Shown: positions 13,846 through 57,319 of the stretch, piece by piece
Numbering within the stretch: position 1 is the first letter of the stretch
How the letters are laid out: every line of letters starts with the position of its first letter
From: Girardia tigrina
Taxonomy: Eukaryota
Direction: 5' to 3'
Length of the DNA: 57,319 nucleotides
Assembly: GCA_001938485.1 (NCBI GenBank)
Contig: MQRK01179919.1
Location: forward strand, 15,749-73,067
Notes under the pieces: generated by a model
Databases searched by the model: none
The model's input: the letters and a program-made list of their open reading frames with translations, nothing else
What the model was told of the DNA's origin: nothing
Position numbers and translations under genes: made by a program

Positions 13846-14321
13846 GAACTAAGCCTTCAAATTAGTGCTAGAAAGCGAGATTTAGAGGATTTCTTGTCAG
13901 TCAGAACCGACTCAAACTTATTCTGAATTTCCACAAATAAATCTATAAAGACAAATTTTACTGATTAATATTTTTTTTGAAAAATTACATTGGATTAGAA
14001 TTCTTCAAAATTTGGATTTCAAAATTGAAATTTCTATTATACTGTTAAATTTGATCTGTTTTATTCACAAATTGTTTTTTTTTAAGTTATTTGGTTTTAT
14101 TTAAAAAATTAATTTTGAAATCGTTTTGTTTGAATAAATAAAAGTAATGTTTTGTGGCGCGAATTTGTTGTAGAAAATTGTGTTGGAAAGTCGCCATTGA
14201 TTAATTTATTTTTTGTGGTTAATTTAAATAAATAAAGATTAATTCGGCGTGAAATAATTTTCAAATTGATAAAGTTATGCTTGAGATCGTTAATAATTTG
14301 GAAGTTCACATTTTTGCAACT

Positions 14322-14690
14322 ATGAGTGAATTGAAGCTGAGTCCTGGATTGACCCAGGCCGATTTTCGTGAATGTCGTGAAGCAATTCAACACGACAAAC
14401 CGTTTCAATCGTCAGATAATGATTTATCATATTTAATCGATCCGTTTTCCGTGGGTTATATTAAAAATTTCATATCGATCAAAAACCCGACGGATAAATA
14501 TGTGGCATTTAAAATCAAAACAACGACACCGAAACAGTACTGCGTGAGACCGGGCGTTGGATTTGTCTCTCCGCAACAGTCTAAAGAAATATCGATCATA
14601 CTGCAACCGATGCAATATTCAATGAATGATAAGGCCGAGACTTTACCACATCTAAAATTCTATGGCGTATCTGAAGTCGGTGAGATTAAA
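14322..14690 (+). pseudogene. VAP: Chimeric host-gene fragment: EF-hand-like N-terminus + VAP (VAMP-associated protein) MSP domain + unidentified piece
   Basis: 14385-14633 encodes PF..IKNPTDKYVAFKIKTTTPKQYCVRPGVGFVSPQQSKEISIILQP, an MSP domain that stops before the HKF strand, coiled coil and TM segment. 14322-14384 (LTQADFRECREA) resembles the calmodulin-like LTEEQIAEFKEA helix. A decayed 24-nt intron lies at 14416-14439. Confidence 0.85.
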
Positions 14691-16005
14691 ATTTTAAATG
14701 TGATCCCCCGACCGGGTGTTCGCTCTCCGTCGCCGACGCGCCGCAGTCACAAAATCGCTGCGCCCGCCCTTGCACCATCAGGCGTTATACATGAAAAATA
14801 TCAATCAGTTTTTTTTTCAAAATTTGCCTAGTTGGATTTTTAATTGATCGTACTTTAATTGAGTCCAATTTTATGTACAGCAGTGTCTGGTTGAAGAGCC
14901 GGTTCGATGATTGCTAATTGTTTGAGATTACGACTTGGTCGTTCTGTTACTACGTTTATTAAATCCATAAAAAGAATATTTCCCATTGATGGCGAGTGAT
15001 TAAATGACACATAACTTATATGTAACGAATATTATAATGTCGATATTATCCCATTTCTGGCAAGTCTAATAATTGTCGTCGCTTTTACTGATATCTTTCG
15101 AAGTATTGCTTGTGCTGCTATTCTGGGCCGAGGCTCCAGCTCCGCGGTCCTGATTGCATTCTTCATCACAAAAATTTTCTACGCACTTCTCCACGACGAA
15201 ATTCATTGTCCCTTGGGTTCTCGATGGAAGGTTCCCCTACACTCTCTTCATTCGATTCTCTGAACACAAGCGTAAATTAAAAAATATTGAATAATATTAA
15301 ATGATATTTAATATTTAAATAATATTTAATAAATACTATATGATAAAATGTACTAGATAAATACAAACACGCAAAAAGAATTATCTAAACTTAAAAATCA
15401 GTTAAAATTTTTCAATGTCTCATTTATGGTAGTACTCGAGTTTAGAGCCCCGAAAACCTTTAAAAACGATAAGTATCTAATACTATTTACTCTCATGTCT
15501 CAATCGTACCTTTAATTGTCAATGAAACATGAAAGACTTTTCGGCACCAACATGTAGATTCAAAATAATAATATTAATAGTTTGACTTACATAAATTTTA
15601 AAATTAATAATGTCGATAATATTTTAATGAGTATAAATATCGATAACTTTGTACTTTGACAACTGGGTGTTTTGAGGTCGGACATATAGTGAACAAATAA
15701 ATGTTATCTATGAATTATCAATGAATGTAGAGATGGCTGACAGATATTTGAGTTATCGTTTAGTAAAATAGTTAATGAGAAATAGTAATGTTTCAATAAT
15801 ATTCTCTTTTCTGAGATATATTAACAGCGAGATTCGATTTTGTGATATGATTCATTTAATTTTTGAGATTAAAAAATTATATCTGAGAATTATGATGAAT
15901 CATCATTGATGATAAATTGGTATTGACTAGACTGATAAACTTTTGGCAATAAAATTGTTTAAGTGACAATTCGTAATCAAATGCTTAGTGATAATATGTA
16001 CAAAA

Positions 16006-19570: not shown

Positions 19571-19738
19571 TTTTGTTTCTAATTCCTTTGTTTGAACGAA
19601 TCAGTTATTATACAGTTTGATATCTAATAAAGATTACTAAGGATTACCGATTGCTTTATTATAGAAATATTAATTAACTGAAATTGAATATCTAATTTAA
19701 AAGAACAGATAGCTTTAGCATTTGACTATATTTTTAAT

Positions 19739-20140
19739 GTGGATTATTATATGAAGACATTTGAAGATAATCACGTAAAAATCTCCGAAGAAATCGTTTT
19801 ACCTGCTGTTGCGTCTCAAATGAGAAATTCGTCAAATCCAGTCGTATTTTTCGATGTCAGTGTTGGTGGTCAGGATATTGGCAGAATACAGTTCGAATTA
19901 TTTGCCGATATTGTCCCGAAAACTGCGGAAAATTTCCGTCAATTTTGTACGGACGAATACTGTAAAGATGGAGTTCCTATTTGCGACGAGAACTTTGAGA
20001 TGAAGCACGATAGTGCCGGCAAATTGTCCATGAGATCGCATATCAAAGGAACTGACGAAATTTCATCACCTACTAAAATTTGTGGAGACATTCATGGTCA
20101 GTGGGACAGAGAAATGGCCGTCAGAGGCCAGGAAAATTAA
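19739..20140 (+). pseudogene. PPIH: Chimeric host-gene fragment: cyclophilin H (internally deleted) + PP1-like PPP phosphatase piece
   Basis: [49 protein letters not shown] (the KDGVPI insert is typical of PPIH) is joined directly to [16 protein letters not shown], so the GYKG..FHR..QGGD core is missing. It is followed by [15 protein letters not shown], the PPP GDxHG motif in a PP1-type KICGDIHGQ context. Confidence 0.92.
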
Positions 20141-21214: not shown

Positions 21215-23030
21215 TTGTCCACCAAAAGCGAGTCCTGCAGGTTTAAAAAATGCTACTTGAGTTCATCTGTAAACTCTTAAAACTATCCCCAATGTATTCA
21301 CCCTCTATAATTCCTTTAGCAATAATATAGGTCTGTTTAATTTCCAAAATCAAACTAACGCTTCGCCTTCTGTTCCACGCACCGTAATAAACCATTGGGT
21401 ATTTTTAGTGAATAACCATAATGTTTTTTGAGATGCAAATTAAAGCCTGTTTCACCATAAACACAAGATTTTCGTTTGAAATGTTGTTAATAACCGGCAA
21501 TATTCTTGTCGTAAAGCAATAGTCTTGGTCGTGTTTCTTTCTGTTGGCACTAGTATAAACCTTTTCGGTATATAATCCATTGATTTTAATATTAGGTTGT
21601 CCTAAAAGTTCCCGGTCAAAATTGAAAAATACAATTTTTTGTGCGAGAATTTATTTTAAATAAATAACAATTAATCTTCAAAGTACAGTCCATCGTTTTC
21701 AACTACTTTCTGCTAACGGCCTGCAAGCTTTCAAATCTGGTCAAAGTGCCATTCCGGTTACTTCGAATTGAAGAACTCTTGACATGTTTGTTCAACTTCA
21801 TCGACTGCTTCGAATCAGCGGCCTTTCAAGAAGTGTTGCATGGATCGGAAGAGGCCATAATCGGATGGAGTGCAATCAGGGCTGTAAGCAGGATGCGGCA
21901 GGATTTCGACTCCATCCAACTTTTGGAACCTTCCCGTGGTCTTCTTAGCGGTGTGTGGTTTGGTATTGTCTTGCTGAAGCAGTACACGTTTTCGGTTCAT
22001 TAAGGCAGGGTACTTCTCCTTGAGCTTCTCGTAGACACGGTCCAGCTGTTGACAATAGAGCTCTGCGTTGATGGACTGGCCGTTTTGAACCAACTCAAAG
22101 TGCACGACTCCATCAAAGTTCCACCAGACGCACAACATGATTTTCAAGCCAAATCGATCTTGTTTTGGAACTGACGACGTTGCTTGACCCGATGGAACCC
22201 ATCACTTGTCTCGGTTGTGGTTGACCAAGTAGACCCACTTCTCGTCCGACGTCACAATTCGTTTTTAAAAGCGGTCATCTCGTGGATTCTGTAGCAGTTG
22301 TCTGCAAATTTGAACTCTTATCAGCCTTTGCTTAGGTAAGTTCTTGTTGATCTTGACGCGGTTTCTTGTGCACAAAATTGAGCTGCTTCAAATTCCAAAG
22401 TATGGTTGATCGGCCAACTCCAAGCTTAAATGTCAAATTGCGAGTGCTTGACGAAGGCTTCATGTCCAATTCTGCTTGCAAGTCATCGTTATCCAATTTT
22501 GTTGGTCGTCCAGAACGAGGTGCCTTTATTGAAACGCTTGTACTTTTTCCGACCGTTTGTGTACCTTCAACTTTGCAAATTGCCTTGACAGAATCTTATG
22601 TTATCATGCCTTTCTTCCAATAGTCACGCAGCAACACATGGATTTCAAGCTTTGTAATCTCCTAGTCCATATAATGCTATAAATAAATCGATATATATCA
22701 ATATCAAATAAATAATGCTAAAAATAAATTTGAAAAAAAATTTGTATTTTCGTCATTGACCGGGAACTTTTATGACAACCTAATATACGGGAATTCTAAA
22801 GTTTAGAGCATTGTTATTTTTACAATGTTCAGCTGTTTTAGCATCAATAATTTCATCATCAGTTTTTCTTGAATTGATGCTGATATATAAATTTATGGCG
22901 CTAGAAAAAGAAATTTCCTTTTCTTCCGCTATATTTTTTAGTGTAAGATTCTTTTTAATTGACCTAAAGGATTTTAGAACATTCAAAGTAATTTTTGATC
23001 TTTATTTTAAGGTTGGTAACTCTTTCATAG
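21215..23030 (-). pseudogene. IS630-like (DDE_3) transposase remnant split by a mariner insertion
   Basis: The N-terminal HTH-like part (KRSKITL..TLKNIAEEKEISFSS) lies at 22786-23030. It resumes left of the mariner with LKSMDYIPKRFILVPTERNT..LRQEYCR, ETGFNLHLKKHYGYS, SVSLIL..IIEGEYIGDSF. Confidence 0.8.
21592..22783 (-). mobile_element. mariner (DD34D) element with both TIRs, defective transposase
   Basis: 28-bp TIRs TTAGGTTGTC(C/A)TAAAAGTTCCCGGTCAA with TA on both sides. The transposase (22670 to 21671) has RSGRP, IVTSDEKWVY, QQDNTKPH and HPAYSPDCTPSDY plus stops and deletions. Confidence 0.97.
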
Positions 23031-40520: not shown

Positions 40521-42364
40521 CCTGAATGATAATAATTAGGGTAATAATTTACACAAAGCGTTTGAATTTACTACTTGAACCACTCATGAAAATTAACATT
40601 TTATAATATTTTAAGGGTATTATCAACTTATTATCATAATATTCATTGTAAAATTTGGTATTATTACCATAATGATTATTTACTATTATATTCGATAAGA
40701 GATGATATATTATCCACGAAATTATTATTTTTATAACGCTCTTTGAAATCACCTGCATTTATTATTCATTTATAAAATATTAACATAAGCAAATATAGGA
40801 AAACAATTCTTTAAAATCAAACATTTAGAGTTATAAAGAAATCCAAAAGTAAATCATTCATTATTGACATTTTTCTAGGACAGGGGTGAGTTAAAAAAAG
40901 TACAAATTGAGTGAATCCGCGTAAAGTTGAGATCGCTCTGCATAATCCGCATCGAGACGATTCTGTCTGTACAGCGCCTTTGCCGAAAGGCACTGGGAGC
41001 CGATTTATTTGAATGACTGTTAAATTAACAGAGAATTCAAAACAATTAATGATAAAGTATAATAATTACGATTTAAAAATTAAAACAGAAACTTTTAAAT
41101 TCAAAAATTCAGCTCACCCTTCATATATGATGGGTATTTTTCTAGTAAATATTACCTTGAAAACAAAAGATAATTATCGTAGATGAAAGCCATTACAACC
41201 TAATTATAAGCTTTGACTGCCGGAAACCGTAGGAGCACCGTTTTCGACAATCACCGATCAAGCGTAACCGATCATCAAGTGTAAATCTTTGCTGGTGCTT
41301 TTCGAGGTTTGGGACCAAAACGCGAAGATGACAATCCGGATGCACAAGGAAAGATGACACATCCCACTGCGACTTGGATAATATATGCAGATAACGCTCC
41401 CGTTATAGTTACCAAGCCAAACGCTGTGCGCCTAGATTTTCTTTTTAGCAATAAAAAAGCTGATATCATCTTCCGTCTTTGCAGCCGAAAGAGAAGACGA
41501 CGACAATTGATAGTTTATGAATAACTTGTAAGTATTTTGTTAAATTACTGTTTCTTCGGCCAAAAAAAATAATAAGTTGACAATAAGCTGAAATACAGCT
41601 TCGTCGGTCTTGGATCATTAGTTCGTTTATTCATAATTTGATTAATTATTATGGTTGTTTAAGAACTGTCGTTATGAATGTAAGTGGATCGGAAAGTAAT
41701 GATATTTTGATTTGACCGAACATTTACAAGTCAAAATTAATCATAAATAGAAAATGAGTCTACTCTGATGAATGAAATTGAGAAATAAACTACTTTTGAA
41801 ACGATTTTTCGTTGAAATTAGTCCAAATCATTGAAAAGCTTTGAAGTAAAGTAAATTGGATATCTATGAAGAAGTTCATAAAGCAAAAAATTAATTTTAT
41901 AGCGATTCAGTAGTGTCAGTAGTGTTTGAAATGATTTTGTTATTTTCTCTCATTATTATGTATACTTCTACATGCAAATGTGGAATATTGTGCTGTTGAT
42001 GAAATTCTGTCACTCGCTTCAAATTCATTTCCGGTGTTAATGTAGATGCAAATGTCAGATGCGATTCGCGACTAATATACATGGATTCCATAGAAACACT
42101 TGATAGTTAGTAGAGTGATATCACCATGCATTAATATTGCATTTAATATGTCATCGTTATTCATTCAATCTGCATCAACACAGCAAAAAAACAAAAAAAA
42201 ACTTTTTTATGTAGCTGTGTTGTTGTGCCGTTTATTATGATTATATATTAACATATTAACATGATATATAATGCCTAACTTTGCTCACCTTGTGTAACAA
42301 TAAAATAATAATAAAATAAAATGACTACAAATGTAATAATAAATATGCAGTCAATTAAAACAAA

Positions 42365-43159
42365 ATAATTTACAGAAATGGATTTACAAAAAGAACACTG
42401 ACACGGGGTTGTACACAACTCCGGGTAGTTTCTGTGAAACTAGGTACAAAAGCAACATGATTAAATGTTTAATATATCGTTCTTGGTCTCTTTCGTCAAC
42501 ATATTTAAATGCCCATGAAAGTTTAAATAAATTTACAAGTTTATTAAATAAGAATGGATGCTCAAAATCATTTATCGAAAAATTAACTCATCAAACTTTA
42601 GATAAAATATTAAATGAGTCAAATAGTAATAATAAAAATCTTAATAATACGACTCCTCAAACCATTTCCCCTAATACAAATTATAACCCACTTGAATCAA
42701 GGTATATCTTATCGATTCCTTATTCAGAGGGTTTTAAAAATTTAAAATCATCAATTTTGAAAAGTTTGATCCCAAATACCATGAATCTAAAAATTATTTC
42801 CAAATCATATAAAATTCGTGATATGTTCAGTAATAAATCTCCCACTCCTCTCGGTTTGTGCTCCGATGTTGTTTATAAATACATGTAATGGGTGTAACGC
42901 CACATACATTGGAGAGACATCTTGTCATCTCTGTAAACGGATCAAAGAGCATAGTCGGTTGGATAATGGGAGCAATATTGTCGAACATAATTTAAAATGT
43001 AAAAAGAAAATCGGAGAAAATGATTTTGAAATTCTGTGTAATCGATTTAAAAATTACTGGGAGAGAGTAACGTGTGAGGTCTTATTAATAAGATCCATGG
43101 ATCCAAAAATTAATATCCAAGCTTCACACTCAACTTCTCTGTTAAACATTTTCAAATAG
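42365..43159 (+). mobile_element. Penelope-like retroelement, 5'-truncated (RT thumb, linker, GIY-YIG endonuclease)
   Basis: IYKKNTDTGLY..SFCETRYKSNMIKCLIYR (thumb), LSIPY, then DVVYKY/CNGCNATYIGET..KRIKEH..CEVLLIRSMDPKIN with one frameshift. Confidence 0.95.
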
Positions 43160-51215: not shown

Positions 51216-52109
51216 CTTTTTTATGTTCAAAAAAAATAACAATTCCAAAATTTTTTACTATCATTTTAATCGAACAGAATCCTTTCTTTCCACTCTTCAC
51301 AATCGATCATAAAAGCAAAATCATACATCTATTTATCACAAAAAAAATCATAACAATTCTCGCTCAGAATATCAACAATCAACCAACAAATTAGTGCGTT
51401 TAAACAAAAACGCACTTTTTCACTAATTTAATTACATCTGTGAACAGTGTAAAGTCTGGAGCGTTATCAGATTTATATATGCCTGGAGGGGCGACGAGCC
51501 CCCAGAAAGCATGGTGTTAATCGGATATGATTATGTTATTATTGTGTTGACATGTCTATATGTTTGGGACTATGTACACTATCTAGATGGGATTCTCCTC
51601 CATTGTCGCCATCTACAAGTCCTTGTGTTTGTGGTTAGTCTCAACATACACTACTTGAAAGCACGCGTTTGATTCGTGGTTTATTACTCTAATGCTCATT
51701 CATGTACTATCTAAAGATATTTACAAAAGTTCATTTGCTTCCATTTACAAAATTATCTATAGATTATATATATGTATTCTCATTTTATGTTACAAGTACT
51801 ATCATCATCGGACTATTGTATCAAAGTTAGATTCGCGATTTAATGTCTGTCGGACTGTATAAATTTATCCAGAAACCATATTCGTTTTATTTAGTGTCGA
51901 CAAATTTGTTTAGAAACCACTCTAATTATACTTACTGTAAATTTCATCCATCGATTATTAAAAGAACAATAAAACACGATTTTTGAAAGTTTATTATGTT
52001 GATAATTCTGATTATTAAAACAACAATAGTTGTTTTAAAATCTTTTTTTAATAATCAAAAATAATATTTTTAATTTATATAAACGCAGTTTACATATGCC
52101 CATGTACAA

Positions 52110-52325
52110 GATGCAGAGTATCATGACAAGTAAACGTTGGCTTCAATCTGTCTATTGAGACCTTCTTTGTGTAACCAACAATCTTTAGGTCAAAGGTTTT
52201 CAAGTCATTAGATCTGCTGAGTACCTCATAAGCTCCATAGTATGGTGGCTTCAGCGAGCCAGAGTTATCGATCTTGATCCATACGTATTTGCAGTCTTTG
52301 AGAGCCTGTGGTAGAAAGATCTTGA
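52110..52325 (-). pseudogene. Ty3/Gypsy pol C-terminus (integrase GPY/F region)
   Basis: IFLPQALKDCKYVWIK..LKPPYYGAYEVL..KTFDL..KKVSIDRLKP. Confidence 0.92.
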
Positions 52326-52499
52326 GGGTCAACTGTTTGTTTTCTCGTCGGACTACTTTGTAGAGAATGTTGTCAACTGATGTCACCAATAAGTTTTGTG
52401 GATAAACTGTTTTCTTAGTTATTAGTTGTCGTTTGAATAATTGTGGCACTGAAATAATTTCGTCGTAGTTATTTATTGTCGTTTTTTATTGTTTTTTGT

Positions 52500-53157: not shown

Positions 53158-54099
53158 GATATATATTTTAAAAAATTCCAAAGATCTTTTATGTTTTAAT
53201 TTTGTTGAGGTTATAAAATAAAAAAGTATGAGTTTTAAAAGTATGAGGGGTTTATTTACATCTGTTTTATTTTAATGTTAATATGCTTATTAAATATTTT
53301 AAAATTAAAAATGATTTAATAAAAGAAAGTCATAAAATAAATAAATATCTATTTAAAAATAAAAAATACCTTTTTAATATATTTATTATAAATAAAAATA
53401 TTTTTCAGTCATAACAATTTATATATTTTAATAGAAGTTATGAAACAATTTTAAATAAATTCTAAAATAAAATTTTGGTTTTAATGTCAAAATTATTTAA
53501 TGAATTTGCAAGATTTTAAAAATTGAATCGAAAATATTTAATGGATTAATTTGTGGTGAGATAATTAAATTAACAGAAAAATTTGTTTAAATATGTGAAT
53601 TGTTGTTATATTAATAAATTTTGGTGTTAAAAAATGAATCCTGATATTGATGTTGCAACCACTTCTAACAAAAAGTATTAATTGTTTTAATTAATAGATA
53701 AAATAAGATATTATTTATTTGTTTACTGTAATAAATATAAATTACATATGTAGCATTTGTCTAAAAAGTTTGTTTGTTTGTCAGTCATGCTTTTCAATGT
53801 GAAATTGTGGAAGAACCAAAGTAAATTCATTTAAGATCGTGGTCAATCTGGATATCCCGTATCAATACAATTTTGTCGGTACAGCGCCTTCGCCTAAAGA
53901 CACCTGGAAGGCGATAAAAGAGATCGAAAACCATACAAGTCGTTAAATGGTTAAATTAACACCGATTTCACAAGGTGCCAACATTGTTATTAGGTGGGGC
54001 CTATTTTGAATATTATCATTAATTTTATTTAATTAATTTAAATTATTTCCTAACGAATCTTGAGGAACATAAGCGGGGACCGATATCGCTATTAGAGTT

Positions 54100-54665
54100 C
54101 TCCAGAATCGAAACCGGTACTTCCGCTTCTCCGTACCGATAAACATTTATATTAAATATAGTTAATAAATTTTTATTGTTGTTATTATGAGTTTTTATTT
54201 TCTTCTATTAATAACTTATAGATGAATACAAAGATTTACTAATAAATATGGCTACAGTCGCTGCCGGCAACAAGAACTGTCCGTCAACGGATTTATGCAT
54301 ATGGAAATATTTCTCCAAACACGTTATGCTACTACCTGCAATAACGTATGTGACAAATTCGAAATTAAGCATTGCAGTATAGTAGAAACAGAGAGCATCC
54401 AAAGGCAGATCGACTACTGCCAGAAAACTGACACCCGTGTCGAAGGGGGTTACATAATTAAACATGGATCAAGGTTAACATATATTCATATCAATAATTT
54501 TATATTTTTATTTCTAGAGGAAGAATAAAATAAAGTGAAGAATTTTATGTTAGATTTTTAAATTTTAACTCAGTGACTGAAAGAATGGCGTTACTTAAAT
54601 CCGAACGCCCACATAAATATATCAAATTCAAATCAAAGTGCGAAAGCACTCTCAGAAAAAAATTA
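54100..54665 (+). pseudogene. rep: CRESS-DNA-virus/Replitron-like HUH Rep remnant with intron(s)
   Basis: Candidate motif I RNRYFRFSV; motif II region (AG)QQELSVNGFMHMEIFLQ after one frameshift near 54267; motif III IDYCQKTDTRVEGG. Removing a 44-nt GT..AG intron (54474-54517) continues the frame with GRIK*SEEFY..LKSERPHKYIKFK, which resembles the oligomerisation domain. No helicase motif seen. Confidence 0.75.
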
Positions 54666-55023
54666 GGGATGCCGACACGGCCTAAATATACTTGGGGGTG
54701 AAAAGCCCCTTTCAAAAAATTTTACTATAACAACGAGAACGGAGAGAGAGAGATGTGAACTCTTATTTTCGTCGGACCATCAGGAATTGACAAAACGAAC
54801 TTTGTGTTATGCCATTTTGAGAACTCCCTTCATATAACGGGGAGACAAAAACTTAAGATCAATTAGGTGCAGAACATCTTTGACTGTGCCATCGAGGGGG
54901 AGGTAGATGTTAAGTACGGCGCCTCACACATTCCATGTGAGACACTCCGAATAATATGCACCAATGAAATAGACTATTTCATTAATCCGCATTGACCGAA
55001 AAACAAGCTGAATGCTATTTACC

Positions 55024-55061
55024 GCAGAGTAGCTGTTGTGGCAGCAGCGCAGTGGAAGCGT
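55024..55061 (+). pseudogene. Possible 5' fragment of initiator tRNA-Met
   Basis: GCAGAGTAGC and AGCGCAGTGGAAGCGT match the 5' acceptor strand and D-arm of eukaryotic tRNAiMet, separated by a short insert. The rest is absent. Confidence 0.3.
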
Positions 55062-55657: not shown

Positions 55658-56686
55658 CAGTGCTGGAAAAAAGTATTTTGACAGTGCACTTTTTTGCGAT
55701 TTTTAGTGAAAATATATTACCAAAAACAGTTTTTCAACCTGATTTTTAATACAACCTAATAAAAGTATATTTTATCTATTTTAAGTAAAGAATTAATAGA
55801 GTGAGACTATTTGAAGGATATTATGTAAGCACTTATAATGCTTACGTAATAATATGTATGCATGGCCATGTATACACATGTGAATATGCTCTTATATGTA
55901 CAGTGCATGCAAAATAAGCTGCGTCACTAGTATTGCATATGATGCATTATCCTTCTTTCTTCCTTCATAAACCAATCAAATCACGATTTTTTTGTTATGC
56001 CTGGAAAACAAGTTGACCAAGAGATTCGAAGTGCCTTACACTGCAATACAAGTCTGTCAACAAGAGAAATTGCGGCTCAATATGGAATTTCCTATCAATC
56101 TGTTGCCAATATAATCATAAGATATGAATCCAAAGGTAATACTTCAATTAAAACAAGATCAGGCAGGCCGAAAGCAACCACACCCTGAGTTGATGCACTA
56201 ATAAGAAGGCTAGCAGGGAAGAATCCCTTCCATTACTTCTGCCCAAATCAAGCGCAATCTGGCAGTGCAGTACAGCAATGTTACTACACGTACAATAAGA
56301 AATCGCCTGTGCAAGGATTTCAAAATTCCAGCCCGTAAAGCTGTGAAAAAACAAATCATTACAAGTGCAATGAGAAAGAAGCGATTACAATTTTGTGAAA
56401 AATACAAGAATTATACGATTCAACTGTGGAAAAAGGTCATGTTCAGTGAGGAAAGCTCATCCCAAATCAACAATTGCCCCAAACAGACAGTTTGAAGACC
56501 AGTTGGCTCATCACCGGTGAACCCAAGGTACACAAAGAAGACTAGAAAGCATCCAACTTCTGTCATGGTTTTGGACTGTTTTTCCCACAATGGTCGAGAG
56601 GAGCTTACACTTCTCAATTCAAACCAAAGACTCAATACCGATGGTTATATCAAGATTTTAGAAGAGAAGTTGACTCATTTTATGTG
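55658..56686 (+). mobile_element. Tc1-like element, left TIR plus truncated transposase
   Basis: TA|CAGTGCTGGAAAAAAGTATT terminus. The ORF from 55997 has STREIAAQYGIS..RSGRPKATT, TIRNRL..ARKAVKK..RKKRLQFC..WKKVMFSEES and KHPTSVMV. It is cut off at about 56686. Confidence 0.95.
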
Positions 56687-56851
56687 AGTAGGGAGAAAAT
56701 GGGCATTCGGTCTACATACCCCCTTTTTTGGCCTTAGGACGCCATGGCGCCCTAATAGACGAGCCATAGCTCGTCTAGGCCAAAAAATCTCCCCTCACAC
56801 ACCCCACTAAAAATTATTTTAAATCGAAGGCCAAGCAGGTTTTGTACTTTT

Positions 56852-56985
56852 NNNNNNNNNNNNNNNNNNNNNNNNNNNNNNNNNNNNNNNNNNNNNNNNN
56901 NNNNNNNNNNNNNNNNNNNNNNNNNNNNNNNNNNNNNNNNNNNNNNNNNNNNNNNNNNNNNNNNNNNNNNNNNNNNNNNNNNNNN
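56852..56985. other. Assembly gap
   Basis: Run of N. Confidence 1.
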
Positions 56986-57094
56986 GTGGGGAGTGGGGAG
57001 TGATTATATATTATTTTTACTTATATATAAGAAGTAATAAAGGGGGTAATATTAGTTATATATTATCATTATATATTATCTCCCCACTCCCCAC
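56986..57094. repeat. Perfect 15-bp GC-rich inverted repeat around a 79-bp AT-rich spacer
   Basis: GTGGGGAGTGGGGAG (56986-57000) and CTCCCCACTCCCCAC (57080-57094). Confidence 0.9.
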
Positions 57095-57319
57095 CTATAT
57101 TAATCTCGGCCCCGATCGATATATCGATTTTTTATTGATTCTTTGTTATTAATGAATTTTTTAATTTTAAAAAATTTTTTTTTAAATTTTTTTATATGTC
57201 TTTTTATGGTTTTTATAGTGTCTGGTGACACTCGGTTGTTTTTGTGTTATGTCTTTATATAGGCAGTGGGGAATCACCCATACGTTGCTGGGTGGGTTAT
57301 GTTTCTGGGTTATTATAGC

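Follow-up and report, generated by a model that had tools for sequence, protein, structure and literature searches.

How did a gene for an HUH Rep, split over several reading frames and interrupted by apparent introns, come to lie among the repeats of a planarian chromosome, and is it the remnant of a virus or of a transposon? The gene is situated near the end of a contig of Girardia tigrina (MQRK01179919.1, positions 15,749 to 73,067), and the whole stretch that was analysed, 57,319 nucleotides long, is referred to here as the window. A preliminary description offered two readings, an endogenised ssDNA virus with a spliced Rep or a Replitron-like transposon. The former is supported by the present analysis, and the virus can be given a family name, that of the PEVE/PIVE elements. 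According to PMC3198968, PEVE is an extrachromosomal virus-like element of G. tigrina (2002) that had not been found integrated as of 2011, and PIVE is an integrated virus-like repeat of Schmidtea mediterranea (Repbase 2008). There is good reason to believe that the window holds a dead fragment of a PEVE/PIVE-family Rep with an HUH and an SF3 helicase domain, left by an integrated nuclear ssDNA virus that infected planarians and probably relied on host splicing for its Rep mRNA.

The Rep remnant in the window

The sequence from 54109 to 55045 is a decayed HUH and SF3-helicase Rep with five stops, one frameshift and a missing Walker B. Its parts, together with the repeat that adjoins it, are the following.

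53730..54088, no strand assigned: high-copy interspersed repeat of about 350 bases; adjoins and truncates the Rep remnant and lies outside the element
54109..54160, + strand: remnant of Rep exon 1 with RCR motif I (RYFRFS, 54115-54132), aligned with motif I of paralogues
54161..54221, + strand: likely intron 1, 61 nt, GTTAAT..TTATAG, phase 1, 85% AT
54222..54473, + strand: Rep exon 2 with motif II (FMHMEI, 54292-54309) and motif III (YCQK); frameshift near 54265
54474..54517, + strand: likely intron 2, 44 nt, GTTAAC..TTCTAG, phase 2, 86% AT
54518..55045, + strand: Rep exon 3 with the helical linker and the SF3 helicase, in frame 3

The 5' part of exon 1 has been removed by the abutting repeat. 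The peptides QQELSVNG-FMHMEI and IDYCQKTDTR, on which the preliminary description was built, were both recovered in frame 1, with motif III beginning at 54415, the position of its catalytic tyrosine. The 44-nt intron of that description is well supported, as a spliced aligner returned its exact coordinates with three of three references that lack the intron (the unbroken frame of a paralogue, one protein of PEVE type and one distant protein), and the in-frame TAA noted downstream of it is present at 54531-54533. A second intron had been suspected between motif I and the remainder of the domain. A likely intron is present there, and motif I does lie upstream of it, but its start is at 54161 and not at 54139, where there is no GT; these coordinates rest on close paralogues, since with the distant reference the aligner placed the intron elsewhere. 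The view that the frame is cut at about 54665 proved to be wrong. Frame 3 continues through four more stops (54699, 54756, 54864 and 54993) to a helicase with a degenerate Walker A motif (54774-54797), motif C (54951-54965) and an arginine finger (55014-55028). Walker B has been lost with a deletion of about 68-69 bases at 54860/54861, a loss confined to the window copy. A protein that joins HUH motifs I-III to an SF3 helicase has the CRESS-type (Cressdnaviricota) architecture.

The copy is a dead chromosomal fragment, integrated and broken, truncated at both ends, flanked by host repeats and devoid of termini of its own. It is surrounded by the debris of host transposons, such as a Tc1 transposase at 55943-56687. 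The upstream repeat of about 350 bases was considered as a part of the element and rejected, as it ends at 54066-54088 in all 28 loci fetched and has a Rep beside it in none of them. It is one of two unnamed high-copy interspersed repeats in the window, the other being located at 53447-53671, and a weak match to a retroelement integrase tail was obtained at 52090-52485. Judged by eye, 42343-43159 is presumably the tail of a GIY-YIG-type retroelement and 21815-22201 a mariner transposase, and 14253-14831 and 19688-20140 are what we take to be pieces, perhaps pseudogenes, of an MSP-domain (VAP) gene and of a cyclophilin gene, respectively. Two DNA runs from a single study contain the Rep stretch and differ from it at 0-1 positions in about 480-500 bases; these runs may be the assembly's own source, in which case the agreement argues only against an assembly error.

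Relatives of the Rep and fuller units of the family

With the unbroken paralogue frame as the query, the PEVE Rep was the sole match among 92 candidate proteins (51% identity, E 7e-54). When the window pieces were compared with it directly, identities of 47% and 39% were obtained, the latter for the helicase part over 178 columns, and since the pairwise E-values are 3e-43 and 4e-22 the similarity is not due to chance. As judged from these comparisons, the PEVE Rep is the only named close relative of the window Rep; the wider relatives are unnamed CRESS-type Reps. The preliminary description had named the lack of an HUH or Viral_Rep (PF02407) profile hit as a ground for refutation, and such a lack was formally observed for the window pieces. 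Among 12 ORF pieces of the window searched against Pfam no Rep piece had a hit, and PF02407 matched neither the window pieces nor the PEVE Rep, whereas 11 of 22 relatives matched it at E<0.01, one of them above the curated cut-off. This outcome is nonetheless uninformative, because the PEVE Rep goes without a Pfam hit as well and because circovirus and nanovirus Reps are reached by other means. A family profile of 28 natural sequences matches the PCV2 Rep structure 7LAR along the two domains (E 7e-8) and extends to a nanovirus Rep domain, and the best matches of the fold predicted for the unbroken paralogue ORF (pLDDT 81) are circovirus and nanovirus Rep domains.

The search for further copies that had been recommended was productive. 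In the assembly of 1.43 billion bases, the helicase part has at least 192 matches (411 candidates, of which 150 were scored) and the nuclease exon at least 111 (213 candidates, of which 150 were scored), numbers that count matches and not copies; related copies run into the dozens. Copies 85-91% identical to the PEVE-type protein P0003 reveal near relatives of PEVE itself in the genome. Trees were calculated from 63 copies and 13 proteins, with 26 short regions and two regions with large inserts dropped, and a second time from 49 rows. The window copy is nested among PEVE-related copies (a 28-row clade, 99/96) and forms with L096 and L154 a clade (100/99) inside a 15-row clade (100/99), the other members of which mostly carry an intron at site 101 (see below). 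A metagenome scan with a clade-B Rep yielded no confirmed stretch among 81, and a viral-contig scan with the PEVE Rep returned PEVE itself as the only match.

The full layout of an element was seen in relatives of another lineage than that of the window. One unit consists of 6,046 bases between 243-base inverted repeats and contains a capsid-like ORF, a PLA2 frame, a Rep on the opposite strand and a second helicase. The PLA2 domain (PF08398, E 5.5e-12, above the cut-off) opens its frame in this lineage; in the large ORF of PEVE it was not found with Pfam. The second SF3 helicase matches Parvo_NS1 and PPV_E1_C by the helicase part of an NS1-like open frame of about 220 amino acids, and it is present in other lineages of the PEVE/PIVE family. 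Next to the window-clade copies examined, neither capsid nor second helicase nor terminus was encountered. The capsid-like ORF is related to an ORF of PEVE (22%, E 1e-14), and its clade-B and PEVE-type versions obtained a language-model score of 0.95 to ssDNA-virus capsid clusters, with weak recognition values; Pfam gave no match, a PDB sequence search with the PEVE version gave no hits and the fold prediction failed (pLDDT 30.5). Its identification as a capsid is weak. The 5' part of Rep is overlapped by an unnamed ORF in a different frame, for which Pfam gave no hit, both in PEVE (L111:3221-4049) and in a second lineage (L108:4058-4627).

The preliminary description had recommended a check for terminal direct repeats. 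The fuller units end in long inverted repeats and appear to be linear. The PEVE contig carries 243-base inverted repeats as well. Among the termini of the family, a T-shaped hairpin occurs with its two arms in both orders, and one such terminus is present in the window.

56724..56786, + strand: T-shaped terminal hairpin of a second, separate family element; z -7.9, none of 200 shuffles as stable
56787..57317, + strand: sequence of the inverted terminal repeat that follows the hairpin, interrupted by an assembly gap; 74-86% identical to the termini of fuller units; runs to the contig end

This hairpin adjoins the Tc1 transposase. It was rejected as the end of the window's Rep element, as it faces away from it and matches another lineage. 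The juxtaposition of a Rep and a hairpin of different lineages has a parallel in at least six contigs (L099/L100, L101, L147, L151, L152, L159) in which Rep copies from more than one lineage are found no more than 10 kb apart, a biased count in that the contigs were picked for several hits; trapping in piRNA clusters or targeted integration are possible causes. A further contig (C250892, comprising L106 and L158; 10,367 bases) with PEVE-type parts has an identical 2,157-base direct repeat at both ends, which fits a circle or a tandem, and its capsid-like frame crosses the inverted repeat into the second-helicase segment.

In an alternative model the family descends from a virus but lives inside the cell as a transposon or plasmid, spreading in the genome by Rep nicking at the hairpins; its introns would have been acquired during long nuclear residence, and the window lineage may have lost the capsid. 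Hairpin ends are indeed numerous and young, with at least 45 matches in the genome (40 scored of 430 candidates) that are mostly 90-99% identical and in many cases start at the hairpin. Some belong to short units of about 540-630 bases that contain no genes and in one case form a tandem, and these many young ends may be non-autonomous passengers. The model also accommodates the listing of PIVE as an integrated repeat (PMC3198968), and the lack of a capsid beside the window-clade copies. Arguing against it are the Rep copies themselves, which are mostly distant with saturated dS and display no burst of near-identical copies. Moreover, one lineage has kept long open frames for both PLA2 and the capsid-like protein, and PEVE has kept the latter, the extrachromosomal PEVE already possesses an intron-like insert, and no target-site duplication was seen at two readable unit ends. 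A purely intracellular element is thus unlikely, though it deserves to be kept in mind. In 17 hand-picked pairs of Rep copies, dN/dS ranged from 0.55 to 1.17 in four close pairs and from 0.03 to 0.35 in five, and dS was saturated in eight with modest dN; for the window and its nearest copy the value was 0.88. Saturated dS between lineages combined with near-neutral close duplicates is expected from the repeated endogenisation of a diverse virus that replicates under selection, with neutral decay of the captured copies, the reading preferred here.

Short probable introns at clade-specific sites

Introns were called with a protein-to-DNA spliced aligner in 91 Rep regions (best hits with duplicates removed and PEVE included, a few of the regions being parts of one copy), and sites were numbered on the PEVE-type protein. 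Sixty-nine short GT-AG inserts were found at six recurring sites: site 17 in 14 copies, site 65 in six, site 101 in 23, site 182 in five, site 206 in 16 and site 218 in five. They are 38-56 nt long with an inner AT content of 87%, which may be compared with the short-intron peak of planarians at 45-85 bases given in PMC13594981. C occupies position -3 in 32 of the 69 (inner C 8%) and A position +3 in 54 (inner A 39%), signals that the aligner does not enforce. If retained, 68 of the 69 would put the reading frame out of register or bring in a stop. The inserts are not independent, as the copies are related. In a boundary control on the first 16 intron-bearing copies, GT-AG ranked above 11 other pairs in nine, with two ties and five losses, the losses being mostly to pairs composed only of A and T.

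The site of window intron 2 is common to six copies, and that of intron 1 occurs in three other copies of the clade (59-62 nt). Two further sites precede the start of the PEVE-type protein, one in the window clade and one in PEVE; the window-clade intron 1 site is shared with a sister clade at 140-230 bases, where it is less sharply called. There are thus eight sites in all, and each Rep lineage has its own one to three short AT-rich introns.

It could be argued that the inserts are AT-rich insertions that entered the copies after integration and are not spliced. They were identified from DNA, two read runs presumed to be RNA yielded neither coverage of the window's introns nor a junction, which speaks neither for nor against splicing, and the boundary control favours GT-AG only moderately. 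However, the same site and phase recur in copies that are only about 55% identical in protein and whose dS is saturated, the enrichment of YAG and GTA exceeds what the aligner enforces and coding constraint continues on either side of the inserts. Insertion after integration is accordingly very improbable, and the inserts are treated here as introns.

Intron sites track the clades on the trees. Sites 65 and 182 change once, site 218 twice, site 206 three times, site 17 four times and site 101 eight times. Decayed copies with missed calls contribute to the higher counts, and the protein records were assumed to be intron-free. Change counts alone cannot tell gain from loss, and some losses are also required, for example at site 101. 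Gain is favoured because the outgroup proteins and the full-length relative P0158 (45%) are continuous frames. Different lineages have probably gained introns at different sites, and the PEVE-type virus family probably keeps gaining host-style introns. An origin from introners was considered and rejected, as introns from different sites resemble one another no more than shuffled sequences do (median score 20 versus 20).

The deposited PEVE Rep comprises 272 amino acids and starts after motif I. Motif I is encoded upstream, across a 56-nt insert (GTACAG..TTTAG, L111:4028-4083), and therefore the Rep of the extrachromosomal PEVE is likely to be spliced too. Among four environmental relatives (P0005, P0004, P0051, P0153) there are predicted proteins with an end at the position of the site-17 intron, be it their start or their stop, and one with a 17-residue insert before motif II, which suggests site-17 or further introns outside the Girardia genome.

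Proposed cycle and comparison with known systems

The live element would most likely go through the cycle of a nuclear virus with linear ssDNA, and the putative steps below are modelled on the biology of circoviruses and parvoviruses. The terminal hairpin would prime second-strand synthesis, and host polymerase II and the spliceosome would then produce the Rep mRNA. Rep would nick near the hairpin by means of the motif III tyrosine and unwind the DNA with its SF3 ring, which would generate the two orders of the hairpin arms. Adeno-associated virus replicates by such a rolling-hairpin mechanism. The genomes would be packed in a jelly-roll capsid, and PLA2 would aid entry. Copies captured in stem or germ cells would be inherited and then decay neutrally, and the introns would have travelled with the replicating element.

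The window is a fragment of a known but neglected family. In the literature searched, outside of which most subscription journals lay, no paper was found on introns, capsid, PLA2 or hairpins in PEVE/PIVE. The eight clade-specific intron sites, the likely splicing of the PEVE Rep and the occurrence of a CRESS Rep together with PLA2 and ends like those of parvoviruses seem to be undescribed. They would correct the picture of PEVE, the Rep of which likely has an upstream exon with motif I and which carries a capsid-like gene; PEVE would then be a true virus. More tentatively, and with somewhat more doubt than confidence, we propose that PEVE is but the visible tip of a family of ssDNA viruses of animals that has yet to be classified. 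Its members would combine a CRESS Rep with AAV-like T-hairpins, would carry a second SF3 helicase besides a PLA2 and a capsid of parvovirus type, and would have gained Rep introns independently at seven or more sites. Parvoviruses are thought to be derived from CRESS viruses (PMC10288648, in a passage citing earlier work), and an animal lineage that unites a CRESS Rep with parvovirus-like termini, PLA2 and capsid bears on that step. Eight clade-specific short introns in one viral gene, mutually unrelated in sequence, would allow intron gain to be dated on a tree, and this in a host that is tractable in the laboratory. If the proposal is true, the family connects circular CRESS viruses with parvoviruses as a link that is still alive, and it offers a natural experiment in which introns are gained fast.

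Among known systems, Replitrons share with the window a Y1 HUH Rep that is allied to CRESS Reps and resides in a eukaryotic genome, but with the fused SF3 helicase, motifs RYFRFS, FMHMEI and DYCQK in place of SUTU, HUQ and GYxxK, and long inverted repeats at the ends of related units, where Replitrons are described in PMC10288648 as having no helicase and short direct repeats, the second reading of the preliminary description can be considered practically eliminated. A Helitron, with a Y2 Rep and an SF1 helicase, was likewise rejected, motif III having one tyrosine and the helicase being of type SF3. Circovirus and nanovirus Reps correspond in HUH motifs I-III, linker and SF3 helicase and provide the best profile and fold matches, but identity is only 16-23% and the related units have hairpin-tipped inverted termini rather than a plain circle; intron-interrupted Reps are known among CRESS viruses, as mentioned in PMC6186406. 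The Oomyviridae (Lineavirales, Cressdnaviricota; 'parvo-like hybrid virus') have, according to PMC12451638 and PMC13426907, linear ssDNA genomes, a Rep like that of circoviruses, a capsid protein bearing PLA2 and likely stramenopile hosts. An apparently linear genome, such a Rep and PLA2 occur together in one related lineage here, whereas the second SF3 helicase and the likely spliced Rep set the present family apart; no named member of the Oomyviridae was among the Rep search hits. Of the features of Parvoviridae, hairpin termini and PLA2 were observed in related units, and a jelly-roll capsid is a candidate by weak language-model evidence, but the HUH protein is of the CRESS type and not a parvoviral NS1. 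PIVE, compared by description only, groups with PEVE in Rep-like and NS1-like proteins (PMC3198968). PEVE comes closest. The window copy differs from it in being integrated and broken, in its lineage and in its intron sites, and is linked to it by the homology of the Rep (39-47% for the window pieces) and, at the level of the family, by the 243-base inverted repeats and the NS1/E1-like second helicase.
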